A DNA stretch of 64,000 nucleotides, taken from Thermoanaerobaculia bacterium (GTDB taxonomy: Bacteria > Acidobacteriota > Thermoanaerobaculia > Multivoradales > Multivoraceae). The stretch lies in the NCBI GenBank assembly GCA_963664405.1, contig OY761158.1, forward strand, positions 4,096,001-4,160,000, read 5' to 3'. Below, piece by piece: positions 1,433 through 35,494 of this stretch; position 1 is the stretch's first letter; each line of letters begins with the position of its first letter. A program made the translations under genes and the position numbers. The notes beneath the pieces are model-generated. The model was not told the origin of the DNA. It saw only the letters and a program-made list of their open reading frames with translations, and searched no databases.

Positions 1433-1600
1433 CTAGTGGACCGTAACACCCAAACGATTAGCGCCTGAGCGGCCCTCGCGGCCGATCTCCGCGTTACGCT
1501 TCCTCGACATAGTCCCCGCTATGCCTGCGTCAGCGCGCCTTGATCTCGACCACGAATGACTCACTCAGCCACTAAACGTTCGAGTGTTACGGTCCACTAG
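1433..1600. mobile_element. Repeat family A copy 1: 168-bp MITE/ERIC-like element
   Basis: ~37-bp imperfect terminal inverted repeats starting CTAGTGGACCGTAACAC; 3 substitutions versus copy at 18248-18415; terminal CTAG contains the ABC-F stop codon. Confidence 0.9.
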
Positions 1601-3525
1601 CTGTCGACTTCGACTGCTGGCTCATGCCTGGCGAGCTCGTCTTCGAGACTCGCCCACTCCGAGAAAAGCCGATCTAGCTTCTCGGTCGACTGCTTCTGCT
1701 CGGTTTCGAGTCGGTGGACCTCGGTGCGCGGAGTGGACTCGAAGTAGCTGGGATCGCAGAAAGTCTCGTTGATCTCGTGGATGCGCTCTTCAGTCTCCTC
1801 GATCGCCGCGGTCAGCTCCTCTTGGCGACGCCCCAGGTCCTTAGCCGAGCTTGCCCGCGGCGTATTGCCTTTGCGCGCGAGTCGCTCGGCGCGCTTCTCA
1901 CGACGGCGCTGGGCCAGAGCTGTCTCGGCATCCAGATGATCGTCGCCGCAGCGCTCCAGGTACTCGTCGTAGCCTCCCTGGAAATCGTTCAGTCCCTCGG
2001 GTGTGATCTCGACGATTCGAGTCGCCAGCCGAGAGACGAACCATCGGTCATGAGAGACGAAGATGAGGGTGCCTGGGTAGGCTTCGAGACCCTTGGCTAG
2101 AGCGTCGATAGCTTCGAGGTCGAGGTGGTTCGTGGGCTCGTCGAGGAGCATCAGATTCGGCTTCGCGACGATCATTCCGCAGAAAATCAGCCGGGCTGCC
2201 TCTCCGCCGGAGAGGCTACCGATCCTTTTCTCGGCTTCGTCGCCGGAGAAGAGGACGGCTCCGAGGTGGCCGCGGACGAAGCCGATGGGCTCGCCCGGGC
2301 AGACATCCCACAACCATGCTTCGACCGTCTGACGCGGCGTCTCGAGCTGCTCTCGATGATCCTGGGCGAAGTATCCGGGGTGGGTCTCGTAGCCCCACTC
2401 GACACTACCTGAATCCGCCTCGACGTTGGCGGTCACAACCTTGAGCAGGGTCGATTTGCCGATCCCGTTGGGACCAATGATCGCGACGCGGTCGCCGCGT
2501 CTCACTTCGAGGTTGACGTCACTGAGGACCGGACGACCGTCATAGGCCTTGCCGAGGCCGCGGACGCGTAAGACCTCTTTGCCGCTCGGTCGCACCTGGT
2601 CGAAGCGAAAGGCTGGATAACGCCGCGAGCTCTTTGGCAGCTTCTTGATGTCGATCCGGTCGATGAGCTTGAGCTTGCTCTGAGCCTGGCGCGCCTTGGT
2701 CGCTTTTGCGCGAAATCGGTCGACGAAGGCCCTGTGGTCCGCGATCTGCTTCTCTTGTTTGGCGATCTCGGCTTCGCGGCGCTCCTGGTTCTCGACCTTC
2801 TGGCGCACGAAGGCGCTGTAGTTCCCGCGGTAGAGAAGAATGGTCTCGTAGTCGACATCAGCGATCGACGTGCAGACGTTGTCGAGAAAGCGGTGATCAT
2901 GGGAAACCACGACGGCGCAGCCGGAAAAGGAGCTCAAGAACTTCTCGAGCCATCGGATGGAAAGGATGTCGAGGTGATTCGTGGGCTCATCGAGGAGGAG
3001 AACGTCGGGCTCTGATGCCAGCACCTGCGCGAGGAGAACGCGCAGCTTGAAGCCTCCCGAGAGGGTGGAGAGAGGTTCGTGGTGGCGCTCGCTCTCGATC
3101 CCCAGACCTTCGAGAATCTCTCCCGATCGCGCTTCGAGTGCGTAGCCGTCGTGGTTGAGGATGATTTCCTCGAGCTCGGAATAGCGCTCGGCGTCGAAGC
3201 TGGTGTCTGCTCGCTCGAGGATCTTCTCCTTCTCGTCCATCGCCCGCCAGAGGGTCTGGTTGCCCATCATCACGACATGAATGATGGAGACTTCCTCGTA
3301 CTGAAAGTGATCTTGATTGAGCACTCCAAGGCGCGCTTTCTTCGGAATCGAAAGGGTCCCGTCGCTGGCACTCTCTTCGCCCGAGAGGATCTTCAGAAAG
3401 GTCGACTTGCCCGATCCGTTCGCCCCCACCAATCCGAAGCGTTCTCCTGGATTGAGTTGGAGAGAGACTCCTGAGAAGAGAGTCTGATGGCCGTATGACT
3501 TGCCCAGGCCGGACGTAGCGATCAT
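1597..3525 (-). CDS. ABC-F family ATPase (YbiT/Uup-like)
   Basis: Two ABC domains (GANGSGKST, LSGG, LLLDEPTNHLD; GPNGIGKST, LSGGE, DEPTNHLD), no TM segments, C-terminal coiled coil; start placed at MIATSGL. Confidence 0.92.
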   Translation of the reverse strand: MIATSGLGKSYGHQTLFSGVSLQLNPGERFGLVGANGSGKSTFLKILSGEESASDGTLSIPKKARLGVLNQDHFQYEEVSIIHVVMMGNQTLWRAMDEKEKILERADTSFDAERYSELEEIILNHDGYALEARSGEILEGLGIESERHHEPLSTLSGGFKLRVLLAQVLASEPDVLLLDEPTNHLDILSIRWLEKFLSSFSGCAVVVSHDHRFLDNVCTSIADVDYETILLYRGNYSAFVRQKVENQERREAEIAKQEKQIADHRAFVDRFRAKATKARQAQSKLKLIDRIDIKKLPKSSRRYPAFRFDQVRPSGKEVLRVRGLGKAYDGRPVLSDVNLEVRRGDRVAIIGPNGIGKSTLLKVVTANVEADSGSVEWGYETHPGYFAQDHREQLETPRQTVEAWLWDVCPGEPIGFVRGHLGAVLFSGDEAEKRIGSLSGGEAARLIFCGMIVAKPNLMLLDEPTNHLDLEAIDALAKGLEAYPGTLIFVSHDRWFVSRLATRIVEITPEGLNDFQGGYDEYLERCGDDHLDAETALAQRRREKRAERLARKGNTPRASSAKDLGRRQEELTAAIEETEERIHEINETFCDPSYFESTPRTEVHRLETEQKQSTEKLDRLFSEWASLEDELARHEPAVEVDS

Positions 3526-3582
3526 GGGCCCGAGGATATCAGCGAAGGCTGGTTGCGGCCGGCACAGCTTAGAATCATGAGC

Positions 3583-5976
3583 ATGGGCAAATCCGCGCCT
3601 AAGACCAAGCGGCGCCGCCGACCAGGACGGCGCAAAAAGCGAGGAAGATCTCGTTCCAGGTTTTCCGGGCGCAGGCTCGCCCTGGTCTGCTCGTCTCTCT
3701 TCGTTGTCGCCGGATTGATCTGGATTCTCTGGCCCTATTATCGTCTGGCAGGCCACTTCGAATCCGGCTCTGGCGCTGAGGTGTCGAGGGTCTACGGTCG
3801 CGCCCCGGTTCTGGCGCGCGACGCGCTGGCCCCAGGCGGAGATCTCTCTGCGCTGCTGCTGCGGCTCGGTTACAGGCCTGGCGCAGATTCTCGGCCGCTG
3901 CCTGGAGCCTTCCGCACCTTGAAGGATGGCGTGGAGGTTCATCTACGCTCCATCCCCTCCGCTGGCGGTTGGATCAGACCGCGCCTTGTCGAGGTGACGC
4001 TGTCGGGCCAACGAGTGCGGCGGCTCGTCGTTGATGGGGAGGAGAGCGCCAGCGTCTTCCTGGATCCACCGTTGCTCGCGGGGTTCTATGACGACGCCTT
4101 CGAAGACCGAAGTGCAGTGGCCCTCTCGGCTATGCCCCAGCAGCTTCTCCGTGCTGTGTTGGCGGCTGAGGATTCGACTTTCTTCGACCACCCCGGAATC
4201 TCTCTTGTCGGCGTCGTGCGTGCAGCTGTGACCAATCTACGACGCGGCGGAGTCAGTCAAGGCGGCAGCACGATTACTCAGCAGCTGGTGAAGAATCTTT
4301 ATCTGTCGTCTGAACGAACCTGGACGCGCAAGCTTCGCGAAGGCTTTCTCGCACTGCTGGTAGAGATGCGTCATCAGAAGCCGGCAATTCTCGAGGCCTA
4401 TCTGAACGGTATCTACTGGGGTCGCAGCGGCCGCGTCAACCTGATCGGAGTGGGCTCCGCCGCACAGGCCTACTTCGGGCGCGCCGCCGTCGAGCTCGAT
4501 CTGGCCGAGGCTGCGCTCCTGGCCGGAATGATCCGCTCGCCAGGCAGCCTGGACCCTCGGAGGAACCCGGAGGCGGCGCGCTCTCGTCGTGACGAGGTTC
4601 TGCGGAATATGAGGGATCTCGACTGGGTGAGTGACCAAGATCTCGCCGATGCACTTGCCGCTCCGCTTGTCGTTCGACCGGTAGATCCAGGACTTCGTTA
4701 TCGGGGATACTTCGTGGACGCGGTGGCCCATGAGGCCAAGGATAGCTTCGGTGTCGATGTCAGGTCCGGGGGGCACGTGCTGGTGACCACGCTGGCGCCG
4801 GGCGCGCAGGTTGCTGCCGAAGAAGCCGTAGCCGACGGCCTTGCCCGGCTCGAGGAGGGTGGTGCCGATGGAGGACTGCAGGGGATCCTGCTCTCGGTGG
4901 AGCCTGAGACGGGGGCCGTTCTCGCCTATGTCGGCGGTCGGGACTACTCTGTGTCCCAATTTGATCGCATCCGTCAAGGTCGGCGCCAGCCCGGGAGTGC
5001 CTTCAAGCCCGTCATCTTTGCCGCAGCCTTCTTGAGCGGTATCGCAACCCCCGCGACCCTGATCGAGGACGCTCCGATATCCCTCTCCTCCGGTGGCGAG
5101 AATTGGCGTCCGCAGAACTCGGATCGGAGATTTCGTGGTTGGGTCACGGCTCGCCAGGTTCTCGAGCAGAGCATCAACGTCCCCACGGTTCGACTCGGGG
5201 AGGATCTGGGCTGGGATCAGGTAGTAGCTATGGCTCGGGCTCTGGGCATTGCCAGCAGGCTCGAGCCACTGCCCTCACTCGCTCTTGGAGCGTTCGAGGT
5301 GACGCCGGCGGAGCTCGCGACCGTCTTTGCCACCTTCGCTCAGGGTGGCCAGAGACCCCAGGTCCACCTGGTTGAAGGCGTTCTCGGCCAGGATGGCGTT
5401 GCAATAGACAGACGTCGCCCGCTGACCACTTCGAGGATCCTTCCGCCGGAGATCGCCTACCTCGTCAACTACCAGCTGCAGGGCGTTCTGGAGCGGGGTA
5501 CCGGCCGATCTGCCCGATCACTCGCGATCTCCGAGCCGTTGGCCGGCAAGACCGGCACTACAAATGGGGGCCGAGACAACTGGTTTTCAGGTTACTCCCC
5601 CGACCGCGCTACCCTGGTTTGGGTCGGCTACGACGACAACAGCCCGAGCTCTCTATCCGGTGCCCGTGCGGCGCTCCCTATCTGGGCTCGTTTCACCGAC
5701 GAGACGCGCCCGCCGGGCGGGTATAGCGAGTTCCGCGCACCCCCCGGAATCCGCTTCGTCAGCGTCGACCCGCAAAGCGGCGGCCGGATCACAGATCTGT
5801 GCACCGAGGGCCTGTCAGAGGCTTTCCCGGCCGACGCTGTGCCCACTGAGAGCTGCTATCTCCACGGCGGTTCAAGCAAGCAAGCGAGCCCTCACACGGC
5901 GGAGGAGCCAGAGCCTCGGCGTCAACGCAGGTCTTGGTGGAAGAGGATCTTCTCGCCCAGGAGACGATCCGAGTAG
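3583..5976 (+). CDS. mrcB: Class A penicillin-binding protein (PBP1b-like)
   Basis: Basic N-terminus + TM, UB2H-like region, transglycosylase motifs EDSTFFDHPG and QGGSTITQQLVKN, transpeptidase SAFK, SIN and KTGTT. Confidence 0.9.
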   Translation: MGKSAPKTKRRRRPGRRKKRGRSRSRFSGRRLALVCSSLFVVAGLIWILWPYYRLAGHFESGSGAEVSRVYGRAPVLARDALAPGGDLSALLLRLGYRPGADSRPLPGAFRTLKDGVEVHLRSIPSAGGWIRPRLVEVTLSGQRVRRLVVDGEESASVFLDPPLLAGFYDDAFEDRSAVALSAMPQQLLRAVLAAEDSTFFDHPGISLVGVVRAAVTNLRRGGVSQGGSTITQQLVKNLYLSSERTWTRKLREGFLALLVEMRHQKPAILEAYLNGIYWGRSGRVNLIGVGSAAQAYFGRAAVELDLAEAALLAGMIRSPGSLDPRRNPEAARSRRDEVLRNMRDLDWVSDQDLADALAAPLVVRPVDPGLRYRGYFVDAVAHEAKDSFGVDVRSGGHVLVTTLAPGAQVAAEEAVADGLARLEEGGADGGLQGILLSVEPETGAVLAYVGGRDYSVSQFDRIRQGRRQPGSAFKPVIFAAAFLSGIATPATLIEDAPISLSSGGENWRPQNSDRRFRGWVTARQVLEQSINVPTVRLGEDLGWDQVVAMARALGIASRLEPLPSLALGAFEVTPAELATVFATFAQGGQRPQVHLVEGVLGQDGVAIDRRRPLTTSRILPPEIAYLVNYQLQGVLERGTGRSARSLAISEPLAGKTGTTNGGRDNWFSGYSPDRATLVWVGYDDNSPSSLSGARAALPIWARFTDETRPPGGYSEFRAPPGIRFVSVDPQSGGRITDLCTEGLSEAFPADAVPTESCYLHGGSSKQASPHTAEEPEPRRQRRSWWKRIFSPRRRSE

Positions 5977-6044
5977 CTGGTGCGAGCGCTGCGGGTGGGG
6001 CGCCTTGCCAGTGCTCCTTTGGCCCCGGTAGGATGCTCTGGTCG

Positions 6045-7235: not shown

Positions 7236-7250
7236 AGACAGGAGTTTTCG

Positions 7251-8090
7251 ATGTACAACCGAAGAAGAGCCATGCACCCGAACGCGCCTGGGCGTCCTGA
7301 GCTCCGGCCGAACAAACTCCTAGCCATGCTGCTCCTTTCCTCGATTCTCTTACCGGCCACCGTGGCCGGTCAGCTCATGGGTGGCTTTAGCCCCAGCGAG
7401 GACTACGTCGTCGAAGTCGACGGGGCGGTTTCGACGAAGGCGAAGGTGTACTGGTCCCAGTCTGCCCGCTCTTTCCTACTGGTGACGAACGATCTTTCGA
7501 GTCCAGTCCTGGTGCAGCCGGCAAATCGGCTGGTCAGGGGCGTTCCGCTCATGAAGCTCGCGGCCAAGTCGGATGGCTCGATCGATATCCTGGCGGGTGC
7601 TGCGCTCACTCCGAAGGCGACTCTCGCGGTCGATGCGGCGGGTGCGAGCTTCGAAGCTGACGGTCACAAGATACGGATCGCTCAGAAGCCGCCCCTTCTT
7701 GGCTGGCAGGATGCCGACAGCATTGTCGCGTACAGCTCGATGTACGCCACACGCGCCGCGGCCTACGCGCCTCAGCCGCGGGTGGTCGAAGACCTTCTCA
7801 AGCAAACCGAGGAAGTCAAGCTCACGGTGTTTTTCGGCTCCTGGTGCGCGTTCTGTCAACAGAAGGTGCCGATGGCGATGAAGCTGGCCAGCGAGCTGGA
7901 AGGATCGAAGGTCAAGGTCAATTTTTACGGCCTCGATCGCAGCTTCGGTAGCGATGTCGAAGCGAAGAAGCACAACATCAAGTCGGTGCCGACCGGCATC
8001 GTGACTGTTGATGGCAAGGAAGTGGGTCGGATCAATGCCGATGGGTGGAAGAGCGTTGAGGCGACGCTCAACCGGCTGCTGAACCCCTGA
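7251..8090 (+). CDS. Exported thioredoxin-family protein
   Basis: Signal-peptide-like stretch, FGSWCAFC CxxC motif, cis-Pro motif SVPT; GGAG RBS upstream. Confidence 0.8.
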   Translation: MYNRRRAMHPNAPGRPELRPNKLLAMLLLSSILLPATVAGQLMGGFSPSEDYVVEVDGAVSTKAKVYWSQSARSFLLVTNDLSSPVLVQPANRLVRGVPLMKLAAKSDGSIDILAGAALTPKATLAVDAAGASFEADGHKIRIAQKPPLLGWQDADSIVAYSSMYATRAAAYAPQPRVVEDLLKQTEEVKLTVFFGSWCAFCQQKVPMAMKLASELEGSKVKVNFYGLDRSFGSDVEAKKHNIKSVPTGIVTVDGKEVGRINADGWKSVEATLNRLLNP

Positions 8091-9342
8091 GTCTCGCGGA
8101 CAGGGTCCGAACCAGGTCGACCCCGCCGTTGGCCCAGCTCGCCGGAGGAGACTGTAACTTTCCCGGCAGGCAGAAGTGCGAGGCTCCCAGCCGCTCGAGG
8201 CGCGGTCTGAGCTTTTGTGCAGCAGCCCCTAGAAGCACAGCGCCTTGTAGCGATCCGCGCAGCAGCTTCAGCCGCTCAGGGACGATCTCCAGGGTATCGA
8301 CTGGATGAATTCGGATCGTACGCAGACCGGGCGAGGCTAGAAACTGCGGTCTTGGATCGACGATCACGGTGCCTTGGGCAAGAGGTAGCTCGATGAGATC
8401 GAGGCCTTGGAAGTGTGCCTCTTCCCGCGCCAATCGCGCACGAACGAGATCGCTGGATGAGACCGTGCCCGGTGGCAAGTCCACCGCTGCATCGGCGAGT
8501 GCCTGACCCATGGCTTCTGCGAGCGCGCCGATGTTGGTCTGGGCGAAGATCACTTGCAGAGAGAGACAGCCTCTCTGGTCGAAGAGGGCGGTGTCGCGTG
8601 CCAGAGCGCGGGCGGTTCGAGGTAAGTCGTCCGGGTCGGCGTCGCTCAACACGGCGAGGCTTGCGCCTGGGCCGAAGGGGAGGAGCTTTGGGGCCGAGCG
8701 ATCTTGGAGAGCAGAGAGGGTGTCGGCACCGCCGTAAGCCAGGACGTGGTCGACCGCCTCGCAGAGGGGATCTTCGAGGTCTCGCCGGCCCCCTGGCCAG
8801 GTCAGGGCGGCGCTGGCCGCGGCGACTGAAGGCTCGCGGCGCTCCAGGGCGTCGAGAAAGGCGGGAGTGAAGAAGGGTTCGGCCGTCGCCAGCTTGAAGA
8901 TCACGGGCTGACGGAGAGCCAAGCAGGCGAGCAGGGATTGCAGAGCCAGGCCAGGGATATTGGCGGCGAGGATGACGAAGCAGGCGAGCGGCTCTCTACA
9001 CTTCGCTGCGCGGTCGATCACGATCTTGCTCTCCCGTGCTGAGAAGCCCTCGAGCAGCGCGCCGAGACTTTCATTCAAGCACCTCTGAGAGAGGCCGCTA
9101 GCGGGCCCGAGGCGATCGTCGAGCCGGCGACGCTCGGGCGAACGTGGGTCCGCGAAAGCGGAGATCGTGTCGTTCCAGGCGCCGAGGAGCTGTTCGGTGC
9201 CGACGCTTCGCAGAGAGCTGGCGCCGTTGCCTGCGAGCTGGCTCTGGATCTGAAGCAGTGCGGCGGGATCCAGAGGGCACGGGTACATCAACGAGCTGCC
9301 GCGCACAGCCCGTGGTAGCCAACTCGCCCGCGCTTCGCTCAC
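8068..9342 (-). CDS. LuxC-like acyl-CoA/acyl-protein reductase (ALDH superfamily)
   Basis: AANIPG, AYGGADT, PFGPGAS and catalytic-Cys motif FDQRGCLS; start overlaps luxE-like stop. Confidence 0.85.
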   Translation of the reverse strand: MSEARASWLPRAVRGSSLMYPCPLDPAALLQIQSQLAGNGASSLRSVGTEQLLGAWNDTISAFADPRSPERRRLDDRLGPASGLSQRCLNESLGALLEGFSARESKIVIDRAAKCREPLACFVILAANIPGLALQSLLACLALRQPVIFKLATAEPFFTPAFLDALERREPSVAAASAALTWPGGRRDLEDPLCEAVDHVLAYGGADTLSALQDRSAPKLLPFGPGASLAVLSDADPDDLPRTARALARDTALFDQRGCLSLQVIFAQTNIGALAEAMGQALADAAVDLPPGTVSSSDLVRARLAREEAHFQGLDLIELPLAQGTVIVDPRPQFLASPGLRTIRIHPVDTLEIVPERLKLLRGSLQGAVLLGAAAQKLRPRLERLGASHFCLPGKLQSPPASWANGGVDLVRTLSARLRGSAAG

Positions 9343-10403
9343 GGGGCCTGCCGGAGCGGGCCCTGCGCTAGATCTTCAGCGGTGAGCGAGCAGCCTCTGA
9401 GCTCAGCCCCGGTGGCGCGGCCGGTAAGGCGGAAGCCACCTTGCTCTTTGCGCGCGATGTCCTCAGTGAGGAGGTGGAGTGCCGAGCCGATGTTGGCGAG
9501 ATCGAATAGCGCCAGCAGTCCATCGCCGCCTTCGCTCACCTCGTCCAAGGTTGCGGGGTCGAGGATGCGGGCTTTCATCCAAGGTGGGCATACGAATAGC
9601 CCTTCCGCCCCGCCGAGCAGGGTTCTGGTGTATGCCTGGCTGGTGAGCTCGGTCATGCCGTACTCTTCGACCACGTTGGCAACGCTCAGGCCGAGGCGCT
9701 GCTCTACCCGGTCATGGAGATGTGCGCGGTCGAGTTCCTGCGTTCGGGTCTTGAATCCACCGGTCTCGAAAATGGCACTTCCGGGCGGCAGCCTGAACGA
9801 TAGGCCGAGGCGATCGAGAACCTCGAGACATTGGTGCAGGCTGAGGGCGGTGGCGAGGATGAAGCAGGGAGTGCCGGCTCGTTGCCGTGCCCCGAGCCAC
9901 GACCTCAGAGTGGCGGGCTCGATACCGCGAGGACCCACTGCGTTCACACTCGCCTCGGCGCCGAAGGTCTCGAGCACGTGGTCGACCATGAACGAGAGGC
10001 TGGACTCGGGTGCCAGCTCTGCTTTCGGGATCAGGGAGAGCATCGGAGGTCGATCGCCTCGGGGCAGGCAGAAGGCGGGGAAGGAAGAGTCGATGACGGT
10101 TCTGTAGAGCTCGAGGAACGGGTGATGATGCGCGCTCCTTCGATCGCCTTGGGTCGTTCCACTGCTGTCGAAGACAGCTTGTGGAGGGGCTGCAAAGAGG
10201 TCCACCGACTTGAAGATCGAAGCGGGGACCGCCGGGATCTCGGTCCAGGACGCGACGCTGGCAGGTACCGAGCCGCGACGCTCACAGAAACGACGAATCG
10301 GCTCGACGCGGGAGAACTGAAAAGCAAAGGCCTCGAGCGCGACTTCCTCGAAGTGCTCCTCTCGGGGCGACCTGATGAATCGCTCTACGCCTTCGGGGAG
10401 CAT
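9339..10403 (-). CDS. LuxE-like acyl-protein synthetase
   Basis: FDSSGTT, ETGGFK, EEYGMTELTSQAY, DLAN and GRxxGAELRGCS motifs. Confidence 0.9.
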   Translation of the reverse strand: MLPEGVERFIRSPREEHFEEVALEAFAFQFSRVEPIRRFCERRGSVPASVASWTEIPAVPASIFKSVDLFAAPPQAVFDSSGTTQGDRRSAHHHPFLELYRTVIDSSFPAFCLPRGDRPPMLSLIPKAELAPESSLSFMVDHVLETFGAEASVNAVGPRGIEPATLRSWLGARQRAGTPCFILATALSLHQCLEVLDRLGLSFRLPPGSAIFETGGFKTRTQELDRAHLHDRVEQRLGLSVANVVEEYGMTELTSQAYTRTLLGGAEGLFVCPPWMKARILDPATLDEVSEGGDGLLALFDLANIGSALHLLTEDIARKEQGGFRLTGRATGAELRGCSLTAEDLAQGPLRQAP

Positions 10404-13677: not shown

Positions 13678-13684
13678 CGGCGCA

Positions 13685-18247: not shown

Positions 18248-18415
18248 CTAGTGGACCGTAACACCCAAACGTTTAGCGCCTGAGCGGCCCTCGCGGCCGA
18301 TCTCTGCGTTACGCTTCCTCGACATAGTCCCCGCTATGCCTGCGTCAGCGCGCCTTGATCTCGACCCCGAATGACTCACTCAGCCACTAAACGTTCGAGT
18401 GTTACGGTCCACTAG
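18248..18415. mobile_element. Repeat family A copy 2 (168 bp)
   Basis: Near-identical to 1433-1600, same orientation, CTAG ends, between convergent genes. Confidence 0.9.
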
Positions 18416-18439: not shown

Positions 18440-18505
18440 TGCGCCGTCCTCGGCGCCATGAGCAACTAGGCGGAGCAAATGATACTCATCATTTGTAGAG
18501 CCTAG
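18440..18505. repeat. Repeat family D copy 1: GCGCCG hairpin plus 40-bp CTAG-ended palindrome
   Basis: CTAGGCGGAGCAAATGAT-ACTC-ATCATTTGTAGAGCCTAG at 18466-18505; inverted homologue at 46057-46123. Confidence 0.8.
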
Positions 18506-19194
18506 CCCTTGCGAGCGCTGACTACCAGCTCCTGTCGCAGCTTGACGACAGTATCGGCATCGTAGATCCCCGAGCGCAGCTGAACGAGTGGGTAGATATC
18601 CGTTCGGCGCCCGACGATGACGCCGGGATGCAGAACGCAGTTACATCCCGTATTGACTCCGTCGCCGAGGATGGCTCCAAGCTTGCGCCGACCGGTGGCG
18701 AGCGGGCCGCCGGCGGTCTTGATCGTGACCTCGCCACCATCGTGCCGGAAGTTCGAGAGGACGGTGCCGGCACCAAGGTTGACAGAGGCGCCGAGGATGG
18801 AGTCGCCGACGTAATTGAGGTGGGGCGCTTTGGCACCCGGAAGCAGAATCGAGCGCTTGATCTCGGTATTCGCGCCGATCGTGCAGCCGTCGCCGATCCA
18901 CACACCGGCGCGGAGGTAGGCGCCAGTGCGTATGTCGACGTCTTCTCCGATGAACAGAGGCCCCTCGAGCATGGCTCCAGGGGCGACTCGCGTACCTCGT
19001 CCGATCACGATCCGATCACCGACGAGGTGGGCGTCGGGAGTGAGGCCTACTTCGATTCGCTCGGAAGGCAGGTCGGCGAGGAGAGAGTCGAGGGGTGCTT
19101 CGAGGAGCGCCCAGGGCGCCTCGGGGTCCCACGCCGCGGCGAAGGGTGGAGGGAGCTCGTGGAAGAGATCGGGCAGGGCGAGGCCTGGGCTCAA
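18502..19194 (-). CDS. Hexapeptide-repeat (left-handed beta-helix) transferase, GlmU C-terminal-like
   Basis: Hexapeptide repeats, APHLNYVGDSILG, NLGAGT and TGRRKLGAILGD. Confidence 0.85.
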   Translation of the reverse strand: MSPGLALPDLFHELPPPFAAAWDPEAPWALLEAPLDSLLADLPSERIEVGLTPDAHLVGDRIVIGRGTRVAPGAMLEGPLFIGEDVDIRTGAYLRAGVWIGDGCTIGANTEIKRSILLPGAKAPHLNYVGDSILGASVNLGAGTVLSNFRHDGGEVTIKTAGGPLATGRRKLGAILGDGVNTGCNCVLHPGVIVGRRTDIYPLVQLRSGIYDADTVVKLRQELVVSARKG

Positions 19195-25580: not shown

Positions 25581-25592
25581 CGAGGGTCGAGC

Positions 25593-26765: not shown

Positions 26766-26832
26766 GCGCCGTCTTCCTTTTCGCGGTGGCCAGTGCGGCC
26801 GGCGGGGGCACTCCGCCCCCCCCCCCCGAGTC

Positions 26833-29367: not shown

Positions 29368-29386
29368 TTGGGCACTCGCTCGGTTC

Positions 29387-30073
29387 CTAGCCGACCCGAT
29401 CCTTCGGCACGACCCGACCGTCAGACAGGTGGATGAGTCGCCGGGCGAGCGCGGCCGCCGCGGGGTCGTGGGTGACCATGACCAGGGTGGTTGCGTCGAG
29501 CCGGTGGAGACTCGACAGCATGTTGAGAACCGCCCTGCCGGTCTTGGAGTCGAGATTTCCTGTGGGCTCGTCGGCGAGGAGGAGAGCGGGCTTGGCGGCG
29601 AAGGCCCTTGCTACGGCGACCCGTTGCTGCTCGCCGCCGGACAACTGGCTGGGGTAGTGGTGACCGCGCTCGGCGAGCCCAACCCGATCCAGAAGCTCGT
29701 CTGCACTCTCCAAAGCACCAGCCTCGCCCTTGAGCTCGAGGGGTAGAAGAATGTTCTCTTTGGCGGTGAGGTGCTGAAGGAGCTGGAAGGCTTGAAAGAC
29801 AAATCCGACCTCTTGCCGACGCCATAGCGCCAGCTCGTCTTCGCTCTTGTCCTGGATCTCGTAGCCATTGAAGATCACTTTGCCGCGAGTGGGGCGGTCG
29901 AGGCCGGCCATCAGCGCGAGCAGAGTCGACTTGCCACTGCCCGAGGGGCCAAGAATGGCCACGAATTCGCCGCTCTCGATCGCTAAATCGATTTCATCCA
30001 ACACTACTAGGGGGCGACCGCCTGAGCTCAGGATTTTGGTCAGCTTGCGGACTTCGAGGCAGGGCACCGGCAT
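29387..30073 (-). CDS. ybbA: YbbA/LolD-like ABC ATP-binding protein
   Basis: GPSGSGKST, LSGGEQQRVAVAR and ADEPTGNLD; ybbAP-tesA context. Confidence 0.88.
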   Translation of the reverse strand: MPVPCLEVRKLTKILSSGGRPLVVLDEIDLAIESGEFVAILGPSGSGKSTLLALMAGLDRPTRGKVIFNGYEIQDKSEDELALWRRQEVGFVFQAFQLLQHLTAKENILLPLELKGEAGALESADELLDRVGLAERGHHYPSQLSGGEQQRVAVARAFAAKPALLLADEPTGNLDSKTGRAVLNMLSSLHRLDATTLVMVTHDPAAAALARRLIHLSDGRVVPKDRVG

Positions 30074-30195
30074 TGGTTGGTACGGCTTGGGCCGCTAGAG
30101 AGGGCTTAGGTGAGCGGAGCCAAAGCTTAGCATTGCCCGCTTCGCGCTCCGCTACACTGCCTGGCGTGTGCGTGTGCCTCCGTTTCCGTGCCGCA

Positions 30196-30843
30196 ATGCT
30201 TCTTCTCGCGCTGGCGAGTGTCCGGGTTGTCTTTGCATCTCCCCAGGTCGTCGAGCTTGCGGAGGAGCCTTCGCCGGTTCGGTTGGTCTTCCTTGGCGAC
30301 AGTTTGACGGCGGGTTACGGCGTAGGGGAGCTCGAGGCCTTTCCGCACCTCCTCGAGCGGGCCTTGAGTGAGCGAGGGCATGAAGTGCAGGTCGTCAATG
30401 CCGGCGTCAGTGGTGACACCACCGCCGGCGGCCTGAGTCGACTCGCCTGGTCGCTTCGCCAGGAGCCCGACATTTTGGTGGTCGAACTGGGTGGAAATGA
30501 TGGTCTCCGTGGTCTTCCACTCGAAATGACGGAGAACAACCTACGCCAGATCGTCTCAGCGGCCGAGGAGGCGGGGAGTCGGATTCTCTTGCTTGGCATG
30601 TTGATGCCCCCGAACTACGGCCCTGACTACACGCAGGGCTTTGCCGCAATCTTCCCGCGCCTATCGGAAGAGCTCGGTGTCGCTCTCGTACCCTTCCTTC
30701 TCGAGGGTGTGGGGGGGCAGCCCGAGTTGAACCAGCCCGACGGAATCCATCCCACCGCCGCCGGCCATCTTATTCTCGCGAACAATGTGTACCCCTACCT
30801 CGAACGCATGATCCTCGACCTCGGGCCCCCTTCGCAACGCTGA
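30196..30843 (+). CDS. tesA: SGNH arylesterase/thioesterase
   Basis: GDSLTAGYG, NAGVSGDTT, ELGGNDGLRG and DGIHP; divergent from ybbA; start uncertain. Confidence 0.9.
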   Translation: MLLLALASVRVVFASPQVVELAEEPSPVRLVFLGDSLTAGYGVGELEAFPHLLERALSERGHEVQVVNAGVSGDTTAGGLSRLAWSLRQEPDILVVELGGNDGLRGLPLEMTENNLRQIVSAAEEAGSRILLLGMLMPPNYGPDYTQGFAAIFPRLSEELGVALVPFLLEGVGGQPELNQPDGIHPTAAGHLILANNVYPYLERMILDLGPPSQR

Positions 30844-30866
30844 CCCGACCTAGAACACGAAGCCTA

Positions 30867-31032
30867 AAAGACCAGCGTTTCCAAGGTTCGTGCTGCATAG
30901 CCCGAGCTCATTCTGTTCGCTGGCCAGGCGCGCCGACGCAGGCATATTGGGCAATATGTCGAGGAGGCGAAACGCCGGCAGCGGGCAGAAGGGGCCGAGA
31001 TATGTGCGCGAACTTTGGAAACGCTGGTCTAG
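30867..31032. mobile_element. Repeat family B copy 1: 166-bp MITE/ERIC-like element
   Basis: TIR (CT)AGACCAGCGTTTCCAA(G/A)GTTCG, left CTAG degenerate; right CTAG contains the mazG stop; homologue at 35251-35494. Confidence 0.88.
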
Positions 31033-31859
31033 TGTCCCGCACGGGGCACTATCGACGCTTTTTCTTCTTCTCTCTTGGCTTGCTCCCAGAGGCTCTCGAG
31101 GGCTTCCGAAGAGACCTCTGTGAGTCGCTGACCGCTTTCTTCGAGGCGTTTTTCGATATGGCTGAATCGAGTACGGAATCTGAGGTTGGTGCGGGCCAAG
31201 GCGGCTTCTGGATCGACATCCAGGTGCCTGGCGAGATTGGAGACGGTGAAGAGAAGGTCGCCGATCTCGTCCGCGACGCGACTCTTGTCCTCTTCGGTCA
31301 TGGCCTCCTGGAGCTCTCCCAGTTCTTCGACCACTTTGGCCATCACCTGTTCCGACGTTGACCAGTCGAAACCGACACCGCCGACCTTTTGGCCCATCCG
31401 GTAAGCAGCGAGAAGGCTCGGCAGCGAGTCGGTCATCCCCTCCAGCACAGAGGAGCCGGGGGCTCTCGTTTCGAGCTTCCTTCGCTCCCACGCACGCGCT
31501 ACCGAGGCAGAGTCCGCGGCAACCTCGTCACCGAAAACATGGGGGTGCCGCTCGATCATTTTGCGGTGAACTTCCGTTATGGACTCTGCCAATCCCGCTC
31601 GCCCCTGCTCTTCGCTCAACCTGCCCAGAAAGGCGAGCTGGAACAAGAGATCTCCCATCTCCCCACGAAGACCTGCCCAATCTCTTCGATCGAGGGCGGC
31701 TGCTACCTCGTGGGCCTCTTCGAGGAGGTAGGCGCGAAGGTCGTCGAATCCCTGCTCACGGTCCCATGGGCAGCCATCAGGAGCTCTTAGCTGCTTCACG
31801 AGGTCGTCGAGGATCTCAAGACTCAGATCTGGGCGATCGCTCACGTTCACCTCCACCAA
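31029..31859 (-). CDS. mazG: Nucleoside triphosphate pyrophosphohydrolase
   Basis: LRAPDGCPWDREQ, EEAHEV, EMGDLLF, RHPHVFG, GFDW and EIGDLLF. Confidence 0.95.
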   Translation of the reverse strand: MVEVNVSDRPDLSLEILDDLVKQLRAPDGCPWDREQGFDDLRAYLLEEAHEVAAALDRRDWAGLRGEMGDLLFQLAFLGRLSEEQGRAGLAESITEVHRKMIERHPHVFGDEVAADSASVARAWERRKLETRAPGSSVLEGMTDSLPSLLAAYRMGQKVGGVGFDWSTSEQVMAKVVEELGELQEAMTEEDKSRVADEIGDLLFTVSNLARHLDVDPEAALARTNLRFRTRFSHIEKRLEESGQRLTEVSSEALESLWEQAKREEEKASIVPRAGH

Positions 31860-32166
31860 ATCGGGAGCCCTAGCCTAATTTCCGGGGCCGAGAAGAGGTC
31901 CCCCGAGCCGGCAATCGCATACATCTTCAGCCGGGCTCGCCGAAGAAGAAATTGCCGTTGTTGCCGCACCCGTTTTCGCCTTGCTACGATAACCTAGGAT
32001 ATTACTGTGGTTGGGGTCTTGGGAGGTGCTGAGTTGGGTTACCGATTCCCTCGTGTCGGCGTCCTCTGAGGCAGAGGTCCTGAGGATGGATCGCGAGGAT
32101 ACTGTCAGCGCACTCATCGTGCCGAGCAGCCAGAACCACATACTACGACCCCCGGCTGGGCAGACG

Positions 32167-33921
32167 ATGCGCACTTTTGCGCGGGGCGGCCGCTGCATGA
32201 CGACGGCTACCTTTCTGTTGCTCGTGCTTCTCGTCGGCGCAAGTGCGAGCTTTGCGCAGCAGGCGACGCCGATCCTGGAGTCAATGCCGCTCACGGTGCC
32301 GGTCAAGAACACCCTCGCGTCCTTGCAGGAGAATTGGCTGCAGTGGGACAGCTCGTTTCTCCGCGGAGACGAGGAAGGCGCGCGAATGGCGACCGAGGAC
32401 CTTCTCCGAGTGGCTTCGGAGCTCGGAATGTCGCGTCTACCCGACCTCTGTTTTGCGATCTTGGCGCGGGCCTCTGAGGCGGCAGCGGGAGGCCAGACCC
32501 AGCGTGCGCGGTGGGCCTTGGAGATGGCGGAGAGTCTCGATCCGGGCCGCCCGGAAACTTCGATGGCGGTAGCGTCGGTGGCTCGCAGACAGGGCCACTA
32601 CATCGAAATGACCTTGGAACAGATGCGTGGCTATCTACGCCTGGCGGGGGAGCCGGTGCTGCTGCGACTCTCGCTCGAGAACCTCCTGGTTTGGCTTCTC
32701 GCCTCCGTGATTCTCTGTGGCGTCCTCTTTGTTTCGCTCCAGTTGGCAGCGTACGGCTCGTCTCTGATCGAGGATCTGGCGGAGCTCGGCTGTCGCGTCA
32801 TGCCGGTGCCTTCGGCCTACCTCGTCGCCCTCGTCGTGGTGATTCTTCCGATCCTCGTTCCATCGGCATGGATCGCGATTCCTTTCTACTGGGCTGTGCT
32901 TCTGGCGCGATACTCCTGGCCTCGCGAGCGCTTTGTGCTCGCCGGTGTCCTAGCGGTCTTGGTGGCCACGCCCTTCTTGCTCGAGGCTCAAGCTCGCCGC
33001 GTTCGGGTGGAGATCTCGGGGCCCCTGCGAGCGGTTCGCAGCCTGCATCAAGGAAGGCTTTACGGAGCCCTGTTCAAGGACATAGAGAGCCTTAGGGAGA
33101 AGCTCGGTGACCAGCCAGCTGTGCTCGAGCTCGTTGGTGATTTGCAGCAGCATCTAGGACAGGCCGAGTATGCGAGGTTGCTCTACGAGGATCTGCTTCG
33201 TAGCGAGGCCGTGAACATCGGAGCTCACAACAATCTTGGCGTCTACTATCTGCAGCGGCACGAGATGGCGAAGGCAATCGAGCACTTCGAGCGAGCGGCA
33301 TCCTTCGATCCAGATCGACTCGAGCCTCCCCACAACCTCTATCTTCTCTACCGGGACTATCTGGCCTTCGAGGAGGCGGAAGGTATTCTGGCTCACATAC
33401 GGAGCTTGGCGCCGGACCAGGTCGCTGCATGGGTTCGGGACGGTGGCCCCGACGCGCCCCTGTTGATGCGTGAGGGCTCCGGTCGGCTGCCTGAGATTCG
33501 CGCCGGGCTTCTGGCCGCCGAGGCGGCTAGCTCCGATGAGGGAGCTATGGCGGCACGATCCTCTCGAATCTCGCCGCTCATCATCTTTGCGGTTCTGGCT
33601 ATCGCACTATTTCTTCTTCTCCTCCGCTATGGATCCGGACGACTGTTCCGAGTAACCGGGGCGGATGGCTTGCAGCGAGTCGCGCCTTGGATCCCCGGTC
33701 TCTCGTCTCTTCTCGCCGGCCATAGCGTTCGCGCCTTCGCGGCATTGTTTGTTCCCGTCTCTATCATCCTCCTTCCGCAGATGACGGATCTTGGCTATCG
33801 GCTGCCCTGGGGGTTCGATCCCGGCGTTTCAGCGGCGTGGCTCGTCTGCGTCTTGCTGCTCGTTCTCTACGTCGCAGCGCGGTGGCTGGTCAAACGGACA
33901 AGGAGCATGAATGTGGTCTAG
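32167..33921 (+). CDS. Multi-pass membrane protein with TPR repeats
   Basis: Signal-like N-terminus, TM clusters, TPR motif AHNNLGVYY...AIEHFERA; start uncertain. Confidence 0.7.
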   Translation: MRTFARGGRCMTTATFLLLVLLVGASASFAQQATPILESMPLTVPVKNTLASLQENWLQWDSSFLRGDEEGARMATEDLLRVASELGMSRLPDLCFAILARASEAAAGGQTQRARWALEMAESLDPGRPETSMAVASVARRQGHYIEMTLEQMRGYLRLAGEPVLLRLSLENLLVWLLASVILCGVLFVSLQLAAYGSSLIEDLAELGCRVMPVPSAYLVALVVVILPILVPSAWIAIPFYWAVLLARYSWPRERFVLAGVLAVLVATPFLLEAQARRVRVEISGPLRAVRSLHQGRLYGALFKDIESLREKLGDQPAVLELVGDLQQHLGQAEYARLLYEDLLRSEAVNIGAHNNLGVYYLQRHEMAKAIEHFERAASFDPDRLEPPHNLYLLYRDYLAFEEAEGILAHIRSLAPDQVAAWVRDGGPDAPLLMREGSGRLPEIRAGLLAAEAASSDEGAMAARSSRISPLIIFAVLAIALFLLLLRYGSGRLFRVTGADGLQRVAPWIPGLSSLLAGHSVRAFAALFVPVSIILLPQMTDLGYRLPWGFDPGVSAAWLVCVLLLVLYVAARWLVKRTRSMNVV

Positions 33922-35254
33922 AGGGACTATCTCGGGCGATGCCGTTCTGCGAGTGCTGGTCCAGGTCTCTGCCCAAAGCTCGACCGGCACCCTCACGGTC
34001 CAGGGGGCCGAGGATGTTCTCGCAGTGCGCTTTCGCCAGGGCGAAGTCGTCGGGGCGGATGCGTTGAAGGAGTCTTTCGAGCGCGGTTTCGGTGCTGTGC
34101 TCGTCGAAGAAGAATTGATCAGCCCGCGTCAAGTGGTCGAGGTTGCCGAAGCTGATGTCCAGGGCACCGTTTACGATCATCTGCTCAACACGGGTCTGGT
34201 CGCGTCCGATGATCTCTATCGCTGCCTTCGTGAGCACAGCTATCGTCTCCTTCTCCGCCTTCTTGTTTGGTCGAGTGGCGAGTTTCAGTTCTACGAAGGC
34301 GAAGTGTCATGGAACAGATCCGTCCAGCCTCTCTCGGTTGAGGAGATTCTGGTTAGAGCGTCGCCGAAGATCGAAAGCTTGGTCGGAGGCAGAATAGGTC
34401 CTCTGACCGACGAGGTCTTGCGCCCCGTTCTACAGGGAAGAGCCCCGCGTGTATTGAGCTGGGATGAATCATCGAGCGTCAATGTGGGCGAGGGTGAGTG
34501 GCTCACGCCGCTGGAGGACGCCCTGCTGCGCTCCCTGGATGGGCTGACGCCCGCTTTGGACTTCAAGGACACTCTCGGCATTGACGAGTTCCGTCTGCGC
34601 TTCGCGCTTCACCGGCTACGTTCTGCCGGTCTTGTCGAGCGGGTTGATGATCTGGCACATGGTCTCGACACCGAGACCTCCGCGCCAGACCAGGCCGAAG
34701 CGGCAGCGGAGGGTGTCGATCCAGGCTCGAGTGGTTCTGGCTCAGCGAAGTTTTCCCAGCGCCTCGCTCGCGTCAAGGAGCTCAGTTCGCTTCTCAGCGA
34801 TCTGAGTCGCGGTTTCTCCTACATCTTGGCGGCCGGGCTTGCCGTACTGCTGCTTGTGATGGTTCTTTGGGGTGGCAGCTCCTCCTACCTCCATCATCCC
34901 TTTCCTTGGCAGGAATCTTCTCGTCAGAGCCTCGACAATCTCCGGGCGACGGCCTCCTATCGCGATATCAGTGGCAAGCTGCAGACGTATCACGTTCTCT
35001 TCGGCACCTTCCCTCTCGACTTCGACCCTTTGATGGAGACCGGTCTGGTTTCGGAGAGAACTTTGCGCGATGCTCGCGGACGAGAGATTGCCTTCGAGAG
35101 CCTGGAGCAGGGCTATGTTCTGGAGCTGAGGGTGCTGGGGGAAGCCACTGGCACCAACCGCCTACGCTTCGACGCCAAGGGCGACTTCCTCCTCGACCCG
35201 GAGCGCACTCGGGTTGAAGATGAGAATGAGCAGCCCCTGTTCGTAATCGACTAG
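33911..35254 (+). CDS. DUF4388-domain membrane protein with pseudopilin-like C-terminus
   Basis: N-terminal DUF4388 pattern (TGTLTV, W..GEFQF), one TM, C-terminal G.FP..F..L...G motif. Confidence 0.7.
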   Translation: MWSRGTISGDAVLRVLVQVSAQSSTGTLTVQGAEDVLAVRFRQGEVVGADALKESFERGFGAVLVEEELISPRQVVEVAEADVQGTVYDHLLNTGLVASDDLYRCLREHSYRLLLRLLVWSSGEFQFYEGEVSWNRSVQPLSVEEILVRASPKIESLVGGRIGPLTDEVLRPVLQGRAPRVLSWDESSSVNVGEGEWLTPLEDALLRSLDGLTPALDFKDTLGIDEFRLRFALHRLRSAGLVERVDDLAHGLDTETSAPDQAEAAAEGVDPGSSGSGSAKFSQRLARVKELSSLLSDLSRGFSYILAAGLAVLLLVMVLWGGSSSYLHHPFPWQESSRQSLDNLRATASYRDISGKLQTYHVLFGTFPLDFDPLMETGLVSERTLRDARGREIAFESLEQGYVLELRVLGEATGTNRLRFDAKGDFLLDPERTRVEDENEQPLFVID

Positions 35255-35494
35255 ACCAGCGTTTCCGAAGTTCGAGTCGCATAGCTCGAGGTCATTCTGT
35301 TCGCTGGCTAGGAGCCTGCAAGGCAGGCGAGTAGTTCTCAGGCGGGGATGGGCCGGAGAACGGGCCGCAGGTCCGTTTTCCGGGGCGAGGCGCGCCGAGG
35401 CAGGCATATTGGGAATCTGTCGAGGAGGTGCAACGCTGCCAGCGGGCAGAAGGGGCCGAGATAGGTGGCGCGAACTTTGGAAACGCTGGTCTAG
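35251..35494. mobile_element. Repeat family B copy 2 (244 bp, carrying a 78-bp insertion)
   Basis: CTAGACCAGCGTTTCC...GGAAACGCTGGTCTAG; colinear with 30867-31032 apart from the insert; left CTAG contains the upstream stop codon. Confidence 0.9.
35308..35389. mobile_element. Repeat family C copy 1, nested in B copy 2
   Basis: Bounded by CTAG and CGAG where B copy 1 has a single CCAG; 60/66 identical to the reverse complement of 46185-46250. Confidence 0.8.

Follow-up and report, generated by a model that had tools for sequence, protein, structure and literature searches.

Families A and B, two sets of repeats in the 64,000-nucleotide stretch of DNA analysed here (the window), probably belong to an ERIC-like superfamily of IS630-type MITEs that carry a conserved single-strand module. 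All four copies were found where the preliminary description had placed them and were real imperfect palindromes of about 166 bp (Table 1). The left boundary of B1 had to be corrected to 30865, where the degenerate end is not CTAG but TA followed by three additional A and the inverted repeat. In self-blastn of the window, A1 and A2 were 98.2% identical over 169 nt, and B1 and B2 were 91.1% identical over 112 nt and 85.7% over another 63 nt. B2 was longer than B1 because a copy of a third family, C, is nested within it; this insert matched 46180-46250 in reverse at 90.1% identity over 71 nt. Delimited copies measured 144 to 203 bp (median 165), within the size range of MITEs (under about 300 bp); the window contained four copies, and MAGs had several each. 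The reading frame opening at the apex ATG stopped differently in A, B and cluster 0, and no conserved ORF was seen by reading. The A1 apex was topped by a variable apical hairpin.

Table 1. Repeat elements of the window, their parts and one associated stop codon.
Feature	Position	Strand	Description
Family A copy 1 (A1)	1433..1600	-	168-bp imperfect palindrome; TA at 1434-1435 and 1598-1599; G.U-pairing (favoured) strand is minus
A1 conserved central module	1479..1551	-	covariance model R1: 53.9 bits, E 1.8e-10
A1 apex	1501-1528		closing C-G pair, GCA/GA internal loop, then GGCAUA/UAUGUC stem with G.U pair
ABC-F gene stop TAG	1597..1599	-	made of the flanking TA and the first base (G) of the A1 inverted repeat
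Family A copy 2 (A2)	18248..18415	-	98% identity to A1; central module 18294-18366; R1 51.1 bits
Family D	18440..18508	.	40-bp CTAG...CTAG mini-palindrome (18466-18505) and adjoining GC hairpin
Family B copy 1 (B1)	30865..31032	+	favoured strand plus; central module 30916-30987; R1 64.1 bits
Family B copy 2 (B2)	35251..35494	+	nested insertion inside; central module 35378-35448; R1 52.4 bits
Family C, nested insertion	35308..35394	.	about 87 bp, third CTAG-bounded family, within the CCAGG box of B2 (B1 vs B2 alignment)
Family D, second copy	46054-46123	reverse	88.6% identity, 70 nt
Family C, free-standing copy	46185..46275	.	CTAG at either end

The inner 100 nt or so were homologous between A and B, with the 28-nt apex identical in register. 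The A core matched the reverse complement of B at 86% over 50 nt (E 7e-9, window self-blastn), and a separate comparison of the cores gave 78% over 68 nt. Allowing up to three mismatches, the apex pattern occurred three times in the window against 0.03 expected, a count reached by none of 100 shuffles; a loop shorter by 1 nt was all that kept B2 out of this search. Similarity between the families ran past the 52-bp core, the 38 nt to its left scoring better than 1000 of 1000 shuffles and the 38 nt to its right better than 954 of 1000, while the scores of the outer 30 nt were reached by 332 and 270 of 1000 shuffles. The ends, previously described as unrelated, were thus so for the outer 30 nt or so and not for the arm next to the core. 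Within families, the terminal 12 nt or so and the centre were conserved and the mid-arms variable, as expected if family-specific transposases bind at the termini. The ends may simply evolve faster and need not be truly interchangeable.

The fold of these elements was strand-specific. The favoured strand, defined as the one reading GCAGGCATA..TGTCGAGGA, was the more stable in RNAfold for A1 (-109.8 vs -73.7 kcal/mol), A2 (-111.5 vs -76.7), B1 (-106.9 vs -83.1) and B2 (-148.5 vs -105.2). Wobble pairs in the arms were distributed likewise, 9 on the favoured strand against 0 on the other and 7 against 0 in the A copies, 6 against 1 and 5 against 0 in the B copies. The inner 108 nt gave fold z-scores of -5.16 and -5.08 on the favoured strand, where none of 200 shuffles folded as well, and of -1.46 and -1.89 on the other. 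Energies and wobble counts agreed on a bias towards the same strand relative to the core in both families; together with the core alignment and the shuffles, they bore out the earlier claim of a shared, structured, strand-specific core beneath differing ends. Over the wider set of copies, folding was stronger on the favoured strand in 95 of 100, with a mean difference of 15.5 kcal/mol. G.U pairs numbered 408 on the favoured strand and 223 on the other, being more frequent on the favoured strand in 14 of 18 families, less frequent in two and equal in two (Wilcoxon p 0.0026). The bias was lacking or reversed in cluster 0 (30 copies, 61 vs 71) and in a Myxococcota cluster (17 vs 31). Such a wobble bias suggests that selection acts on a single strand, which is unusual for a cut-and-paste DNA element.

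Paired positions of the core changed by compensation. Among 101 distinct rows of 111 aligned cores, pair 39-50 was CG in 45, GC in 37, UA in four and AU in three; pair 41-49 of the same alignment was UA in 45, CG in 25 and UG in nine. The covariation score was 0.267, against 0.103 in shuffled alignments (0 of 500 reached 0.267) and at most 0.168 with partners slid, so that covariation across copies, named beforehand as a test of the module, was present. In one diverged copy (L079), an A-U pair of the otherwise fixed stem had become G-C. Any palindromic DNA element would show covariation along its long arms, and this is alone no proof of RNA structure.

The module was spread across phyla. Scanning genomes for TCCTCGACA-N8-12-TATGCCTGC returned at least 113 loci, among which the 18 apex bases are invariant by construction since the pattern sets them; apex conservation was judged only from the flanking columns and from covariance-model matches. 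By record title, the matches listed comprised 67 Desulfobacterota or 'delta', 28 Acidobacteriota, six Myxococcota, two Planctomycetota, two Bacillota, one each of Nitrospiraceae, Eisenbacteria and Bacteroides, and five without a taxon name. MAG labels are fallible (the Bacteroides label, for instance, belongs to a 1.4-kb contig, L093); several of the listed loci lay on contigs of 0.1 to 5.8 Mb. Together with the window copies, the listed loci (118 copies) fell into 20 blastn clusters with little in common beyond the apex. Many copies per genome were seen at unrelated places, with tandem copies in L070 (matches listed).

Rfam 15 gave no match at gathering score in the window, and only chance-level matches to eukaryotic miRNA or lncRNA across 12 loci (E up to 1) and in window positions 30500-35800 (E up to 5). 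No description of the apex was found in Rfam or by literature text search. Bacterial MITEs are regarded as lineage-specific, and the available part of a census of 183,232 genomes reports no bacterial MITE cluster across phyla at 95% identity (PMC11602168). In contrast, the exact 18-base apex pattern and a covarying hairpin recurred here in about 20 otherwise dissimilar families from several phyla, and the GCA/GA loop with its G.U stem offers a small, concrete target for questions of function and binding.

Automatic delimitation found TA at either end beside a 10-nt inverted repeat (complementary with at most three mismatches) in 50 of 105 evaluable copies. Every delimited family ended TA-R...Y-TA with a variable outer base, as in TA-GTGGACC, TA-GACCAGC, TA-GAAGCC and TA-GCCCGC. 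The base after TA was a purine in 46 of the 50 copies; the left outer flank had a pyrimidine (C or T) in 41, the right outer flank a purine (G or A) in 46, and CTAG/CTAG was the commonest pair of ends (14 of 50). End 4-mers were unlike in 28 of 50, which argues for a duplication of 2 bp, not 4; the TA duplication itself was deduced from TA at both ends beside varying outer bases. TA ends, an apparent 2-bp duplication and preferred CTAG are the marks of IS630/Tc1-mariner insertion. ISY100 and IS630 duplicate TA (PMC2170065, available part), and a title cited in that part gives the preference of IS630 for TA within CTAG. None of the 54 ORFs scanned in the window was a transposase, in agreement with the preliminary description. 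No partner protein was found, and the common protein proposed to recognise the core is putative; a plasmid collection looked at with regard to IS630-type MITE ends contained no relatives.

Stop codons overlapped three of the four A/B copies in the window. A1 was neighboured by a metH-like gene (plus strand, ending at 1375) and an ABC-F ATPase gene (minus, 3942..1597). The neighbours of A2 were a SpoIIE-type phosphatase gene (plus, ending at 18184) and a hexapeptide transferase gene (minus, 19194..18502), the stop codon of the latter lying inside the family D CTAG (18502-18505). B1 was neighboured by a GDSL lipase gene (plus, ending at 30843) and mazG (minus, 31859..31029), whose TAG stop (31029-31031) lay inside the right CTAG of B1, and the DUF4388 gene upstream of B2 stopped at a TAG (35252-35254) inside the left CTAG of that copy. 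Outside the window, 7 of 34 Pfam-verified genes ending towards an element showed such overlap (matches listed). The favoured strand was sense to nine and antisense to 25 of these abutting gene 3' ends, and sense to four and antisense to three inside the window; a simple role as sense-strand 3'-UTR RNA had no backing from the counts outside the window.

The elements would go into TA, with CTAG/YTAR sites preferred, and duplicate these 2 bp in the fashion of IS630/Tc1-mariner. Each family may have an IS630-type transposase of its own that binds the terminal 12 to 30 nt and is provided in trans by another part of the genome. With TA-flanked inverted repeats and the CTAG/YTAR preference, ordinary IS630-type cut-and-paste in trans would explain mobility, and no new mechanism is called for. 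With a purine after TA, insertion into the TA of a TAG or TAA stop codon would rebuild the stop, and copies could for that reason sit harmlessly at gene ends; for annotation, this would account for clusters of CTAG-bounded hairpins at gene ends in these genomes and for the survival of stop codons. Superfamily members in several phyla share a central module of about 60 to 100 nt, in which the boxes CAAGGCG and CAACGC (favoured strand) flank a hairpin composed of a GCA/GA internal loop that looks invariant, a stem (GGCAUA/UAUGUC) containing a G.U pair, and a covarying apical stem-loop. Selection on one strand may keep this module as a single-stranded hairpin (RNA or ssDNA), most likely because a putative conserved factor has its site there.

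Another possibility, on the unlikely side, is host exaptation of the central module as a cis-acting RNA element (mRNA stabiliser, RNase target or terminator-like hairpin) kept by selection on host gene expression, with the MITE as carrier, a view that overlaps with the superfamily reading. Close upstream of each of the four window copies is a gene on the favoured strand, the fold is strand-specific, and for ERIC and Correia the available parts of PMC3184786 and PMC2229807 report co-transcription and altered mRNA stability via RNase E and RNase III. However, for 25 of the 34 genes ending at an element (matches listed) the favoured strand is the antisense one, no U-tract followed the hairpins of the window copies (by reading), no Rfam family matched, and a purely host-level function leaves unexplained why master copies of many families and phyla have the same apex. 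The conserved apex over differing arms, the one-sided wobble pairs of 14 of 18 families, the one-stranded fold of the inner 108 nt, and the presence in one genome of two families with unrelated outer ends and no transposase in 64 kb would also suit an enzyme that, on a single folded strand of DNA, recognises the apex and cleaves the base of the hairpin. The arms would then need only to pair, without an end-specific transposase, as in a 'hairpin transposon' like REPIN/RAYT or IS200/IS605. Such structure-specific mobilisation seems unlikely, as the termini are conserved within families above the level of the mid-arms, TA duplication with YTAR preference is the exact IS630 signature, and known single-strand transposons (IS200/IS605) have asymmetric ends and no duplication. 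The literature gives points on both sides: in the available part of a 2007 review, inverted repeats resembling IS ends were found among bacterial repeats only for RUP (PMC2229807), whereas ISfinder, as quoted in the available part of PMC11602168, places ERIC in IS630 as MITEEc1. That the apex is the handle of strand-specific machinery common to many phyla, either an enzyme that mobilises ssDNA or a factor that binds or processes RNA, is quite doubtful. If true, the GCA/GA loop and G.U-closed stem would be recognised on one folded strand, which would leave arms and ends unconstrained; ERIC and Correia would count as degenerate offshoots of one ancient lineage, and the matter would bear on how such bacterial repeats are mobilised.

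GC skew was positive across the whole window, yet the favoured strand was minus for A and plus for B, so that a replication bias cannot account for both. It is highly improbable that the wobble asymmetry arose as a mutational side effect of deamination during transcription or replication, not from selection, and that the shared core is a matter of recent horizontal spread only, even though two families lack or reverse the bias and copies within a family are not independent. Coding-strand C-to-T change would moreover be expected to put G.U pairs on the sense strand, opposite to the majority, and the apex persisted and changed by compensation where the arms had diverged beyond recognition. Dispersed small structured RNA genes that are not mobile would have a conserved, covarying centre and a strong fold z-score such as those seen here; they would hardly be flanked by TA and terminal inverted repeats, occur in many copies per genome at unrelated loci and in tandem (L070), insert into stop codons or harbour another repeat as B2 does, and, with no Rfam match either, this explanation has next to no credibility.

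The superfamily shares with REP/REPIN (RAYT transposases) the character of intergenic hairpin repeats in which structure outweighs most of the sequence. REP units are 20 to 40 bp, one end carrying a GTAG or CGTC tag (PMC3733652, available part), whereas those of the superfamily are about 165 bp with TA and family-specific inverted repeats at their ends, so that they do not belong to REP/REPIN, and, unlike in REP, the conserved part is the centre, not the arms. Nor are they PATEs of the IS200/IS605 type, which have asymmetric ends with subterminal hairpins and no duplication; in the superfamily, TA flanks symmetric inverted repeats on either side. Chunjie, a MITE from Geobacter uraniireducens, is similar in its size (178-235 bp), very stable fold and related host group. 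It is A+T-rich, and its inverted repeats measure 21 bp and its direct repeats 9 bp (PMC3184786, available part), the latter differing from the 2-bp TA duplication of the superfamily. RUP of Streptococcus pneumoniae, like A and B, has a TA target and duplication. In the available part of PMC2229807, it is the only bacterial repeat for which a transposase is proposed, with mobilisation in trans by one of the IS630 family. It was a resemblance between ends that linked RUP to IS630-Spn1, while no such partner is known for the superfamily, and, unlike the latter, RUP has no reported cross-phylum core.

ERIC (IRU, RU-1; Enterobacteriaceae, Vibrio) is also a TA-flanked imperfect palindrome folding as a single long hairpin. 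In the 127-nt E. coli consensus, CTGCGTTGG occupies 27-35 and CCGCCTTG occupies 94-101, separated by 58 nt (PMC2759123 Table 1a, by eye), and both words stood on the same strand, 56 nt apart, in locus L048 and the cluster-0 consensus (by eye). The likeness proposed in the preliminary description was thus seen by eye in printed ERIC sequences, in the two boxes, their near-equal spacing and the G.U-closed apical stem. The central stem of ERIC (GCUUAC-AUAA-GUAAGU) differs from that of the superfamily (GCAUAC-loop-GUAUGU) by one swapped pair, and both have the closing G.U on the same strand and a GA loop beside the stem (by eye). E. coli ERIC copies had AAGGCG in six of seven and AACGC in six of seven (PMC2267715 supplement, by eye). 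ERIC lacks the apex words, the four 9-mers being absent from the 92 families of that supplement, and three 50-kb E. coli stretches held no ERIC. Described only from Gammaproteobacteria, it is about 20-40 bp shorter than superfamily elements, with other termini and a stem (CCCCAG/CUGGGG) absent from them.

Correia/NEMIS of Neisseria is another TA-flanked hairpin MITE, and its conserved 26-bp terminal repeat presumably resembles that of family A. It belongs to Betaproteobacteria, is AT-richer and, instead of the apex module, has a reported internal IHF site. NEMIS copies read ..CAAGGCGAGGCAACGCC.. in the 34- to 46-nt fragments of the PMC2267715 supplement, where AGG links the superfamily boxes CAAGGCG and CAACGC, as though no central hairpin stood between them. 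If these links with ERIC and Correia, drawn by eye, hold, two classic repeat families would be joined in one old superfamily.

The repeats proved to be genuine MITEs that target TA and look ordinary in all but one respect: the strand-specific hairpin module at their centre (the conserved hairpin tip, or apex, with its flanking boxes) was conserved across phyla, and their ends differed. The two copies of family A and the two of family B lay in the window where the preliminary description had placed them. Window self-blastn gave 98.2% identity between A1 and A2 over 169 nt, and 91.1% over 112 nt plus 85.7% over 63 nt between B1 and B2. The likeness described between the A core and the reverse-complemented B core was recovered, at 86% over 50 nt (E 7e-9) in the same blastn and at 78% over 68 nt in a separate repeat search. 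The claim that the ends of the two families are unrelated held for the outer 30 nt only, which were dissimilar (332/1000 and 270/1000 shuffles reached the score). In the 38 nt adjoining the core, the arms were similar on the left (0/1000 shuffles) and on the right (46/1000), so that about 100 central nucleotides were homologous and unrelatedness was confined to the outer ends. The left end of B1 was degenerate, the apex loop of B2 was 1 nt shorter, and B2 was long because a CTAG-bounded repeat of about 87 bp (family C) was nested in it. The apex pattern, with up to 3 mismatches, occurred three times in the window versus 0.03 expected, and R1, a covariance model of the module, found only the four known copies there (51-64 bits).

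Family C was a third CTAG-bounded repeat family of about 90 bp, whose two ends shared little beyond CTAG, and the two copies of family D were 88.6% identical. CTAG was about two-fold depleted over the whole window (81 sites vs 149.75 +/- 11.5 in shuffles), and the ends of the four repeat families made up 14 of the 81 sites.

Coordinates of repeats and associated gene features in the window
Feature	Position	Remark
Family A, copy A1	1433-1600
Stop codon TAG, ABC-F gene	1597-1599	flanking TA + first G of the element
LuxC-like and LuxE-like genes	8071-10403	adjacent
Family A, copy A2	18248-18415
Family D, copy	18440-18508	40-bp CTAG...CTAG mini-palindrome + adjacent GC-rich hairpin
Stop codon, hexapeptide transferase gene	18502-18504	supplied by the family D copy
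Family B, copy B1	30865-31032
Stop codon TAG, mazG	31029-31031	flanking TA + first G of the element
Family B, copy B2	35251-35494
Stop codon TAG, DUF4388 gene	35252-35254	flanking TA + first G of the element
Family C, nested copy	35308-35394	in B2 at the CCAGG box; right junction CGAG, not CTAG
DnaC/IstB-like AAA ATPase gene	38156-38959	directly after dnaK-hspR
Family D, copy	46054-46123	40-bp CTAG...CTAG mini-palindrome + adjacent GC-rich hairpin
Family C, free copy	46185-46275

Relatives of the module were found far beyond the window. A genome scan with two apex 9-mers, 8-12 nt apart, returned at least 113 loci, for a chance expectation of about 87 matches in the whole collection (uniform-composition arithmetic). 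The matches were not due to chance, because they lay within hairpins, kept the closing C-G pair that is outside the search pattern (97 of the 101 distinct rows among the matches listed), shared long flanks at many loci and, in several of the genomes listed, occurred in 3-7 copies each. As labelled, the loci belonged to Desulfobacterota or 'delta' (at least 67), Acidobacteriota (at least 28), Myxococcota (at least 6), Planctomycetota and Bacillota (at least 2 each), and Nitrospiraceae, Eisenbacteria and Bacteroides (at least 1 each). The Bacteroides sp. label was carried by a 1,456-bp contig with a copy of a Desulfobacterota family (cluster 2), and probably reflects a binning error rather than the true host. 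Acidobacteriota, Myxococcota and Desulfobacterales MAGs carried copies on large contigs, and one of the carriers, Geobacter argillaceus ATCC BAA-1139 (L056), is culturable.

The matches listed and the four window copies (118 copies) formed 20 blastn clusters. Among the matches listed, family A clustered mostly with copies from Thermoanaerobaculia and other Acidobacteriota MAGs, and with two from a Geobacteraceae MAG, which makes Thermoanaerobaculia the probable class of the window; family B had no cluster-mates outside the window. Automatic calling of family boundaries from column identity succeeded for clusters 6 and 7 only. R1 added two diverged copies in the listed loci. One (L079:468-645), which lay some 330 bp away from another element at that locus and had ends of the cluster 3 type, showed G-C for the A-U pair of an otherwise fixed stem, kept the G.U pair, and displayed CCC in place of GGA, pairing with GGG. 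A Myxococcota MAG held a tandem pair 178 bp apart (L070:501-706), and one Desulfocapsa contig two copies 1.5 kb apart (L112 and L113). A plasmid collection gave one marginal 34-nt match for A1 and none for the relatives L017 or L048.

Read on the favoured (G.U-pairing) strand, the module consisted of a CAAGGCG box, a stem, a closing C, a GCA loop and a GGCAUA stem half, followed by a variable stem-loop, the UAUGUC stem half, a GA loop, a closing G(G), an unpaired A, a stem and a CAACGC box. Since 18 apex bases were set by the search pattern, their constancy across loci proves nothing and the evidence lies in the flanking pairs. In the aligned cores of the matches listed, pair 39-50 was CG in 45, GC in 37, UA in 4, AU in 3 and other in 12, and pair 41-49 was UA in 45, CG in 25, UG in 9 and other in 20; 80.6% of the cells were paired (68.9% in shuffles). 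The covariation score was 0.267, vs 0.103 in shuffles (0/500 reaching it) and at most 0.168 when partners were slid. RNAalifold on a MAFFT alignment predicted only 6 pairs, because the outer stems were out of register between families, and was set aside. In 100 kb of E. coli sequence, R1 had no significant match. By eye, the elements displayed no IHF site (WATCAANNNNTTR), sigma-54 promoter or conserved peptide.

The module was strand-specific. The strand reading GCAGGCATA..TGTCGAGGA gave the better full-element fold in all four window copies, and it did so in 95 of 100 copies among the matches listed. For the inner 108 nt, the fold z values were -5.2 and -5.1 on the favoured strand, compared with -1.5 and -1.9 for its complement. 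Scoring the two transition types equally gave 408 G.U pairs on the favoured strand against 223 on the opposite one (matches listed). The wobble bias was also found by family, with an excess on the favoured strand in 14 families, a deficit in 2 and equal numbers in 2 (Wilcoxon p 0.0026); the exceptions were the Myxococcota family (17 v 31) and the largest of all (61 v 71). Two earlier counting procedures were rejected: a proximal-to-distal walk along the arms did not get past the mismatched, conserved boxes, and a local alignment of the arms under lenient settings (631 v 517 G.U) extended into the flanks and was replaced by a stricter one. Replication bias, as a cause of the asymmetry, cannot explain the window, since GC skew was positive all along it, whereas the strand favoured by A is the opposite of that favoured by B.

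The orientation of the elements relative to genes bears on how the favoured strand may be used. In the window it was sense to the gene on its own 5' side at 4/4 copies, and convergent genes flanked three of the four. For the relatives, a longest-ORF test proved too noisy, and orientation was counted on 61 Pfam-verified flanking ORFs out of 233 tested (flanks of L001-L080, matches listed), leaving out a DUF2802 match at L021 that scored under Pfam's cut-off and overlapped the element. Genes starting at an element were split 14 v 13. Where the 3' end of a gene abutted an element, 25 cases had the favoured strand antisense to the gene and 9 had it sense, a count partly confounded by family. This speaks against a simple hairpin in a sense 3' UTR. 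The bias may instead reflect an antisense RNA, a role of ssDNA, or selection against the very stable orientation.

The surroundings were those of an ordinary chromosomal stretch (54 ORFs scanned against Pfam and NCBIfam), with genes including metH-like, ABC-F, PBP1, hflKC, dnaK-hspR, carAB, methylmalonyl-CoA mutase and nrdJ, and without any transposase among the 54 ORFs, as previously noted. The DnaC/IstB-like gene had no IstA-type transposase adjoining, and its best NCBIfam match (PRK08116) was under the curated cut-off; the LuxC-like and LuxE-like homologues (acyl-CoA reductase, acyl-protein synthetase) were far under equivalog cut-offs. Each of the four copies lay just beyond the end of a gene. 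Among the 34 Pfam-verified genes ending towards a listed element, the stop codon overlapped the terminal TA in 7 and fell within 30 nt in 7 more. Insertion into a stop codon restores it, because on both strands TA and a following purine make TAG or TAA; the first element base was a purine in 46 of 50 delimited copies.

Ends were delimited by script (TA on both sides and a 10-nt inverted repeat) in 50 of the 105 evaluable copies among the matches listed, to which the following counts apply. The end 4-mers were unequal in 28/50, which implies that TA alone, rather than a 4-bp site, is duplicated. The base outside the TA was a pyrimidine (C or T) at the left end in 41/50 and a purine (G or A) at the right end in 46/50, CTAG/CTAG being the most frequent end pair (14/50). 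Within the families listed, termini and centre were conserved and the mid-arms variable. PMC2170065 describes duplication of TA by ISY100, and a title that it cites reports a preference of IS630 for TA within CTAG. The insertion behaviour of IS630/Tc1-mariner fits the TA ends and CTAG preference seen here, and by analogy the elements would be moved by a transposase of this type.

No relevant Rfam family matched the window or the loci, the apex 9-mers were absent from the 92 stem-loop repeat families in the PMC2267715 supplement, and a full-text search for the apex words matched 47 papers, of which the 15 listed were primer lists and other irrelevant work. The ERIC2 primer, with up to 3 mismatches, had 0 matches in three 50-kb E. 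coli stretches (150 kb). In PMC11602168, a census of 183,232 genomes reports no bacterial MITE cluster across phyla at 95% identity, and ERIC is given as MITEEc1 under IS630 in ISfinder. By eye, the ERIC consensus (PMC2759123) contains CTGCGTTGG and CCGCCTTG separated by 58 nt, and L048 has both of these words separated by 56 nt; a rough estimate, reasoned rather than computed, puts such sharing at that spacing by chance below 1e-3, the families compared being allowed for. The central stem of ERIC differed by eye from that of the present elements by one swapped pair, with the same G.U kept, and NEMIS copies in the PMC2267715 supplement read CAAGGCGAGGCAACGCC, again by eye. Sequence likeness of this kind may reflect a kinship of the elements with ERIC and Correia.
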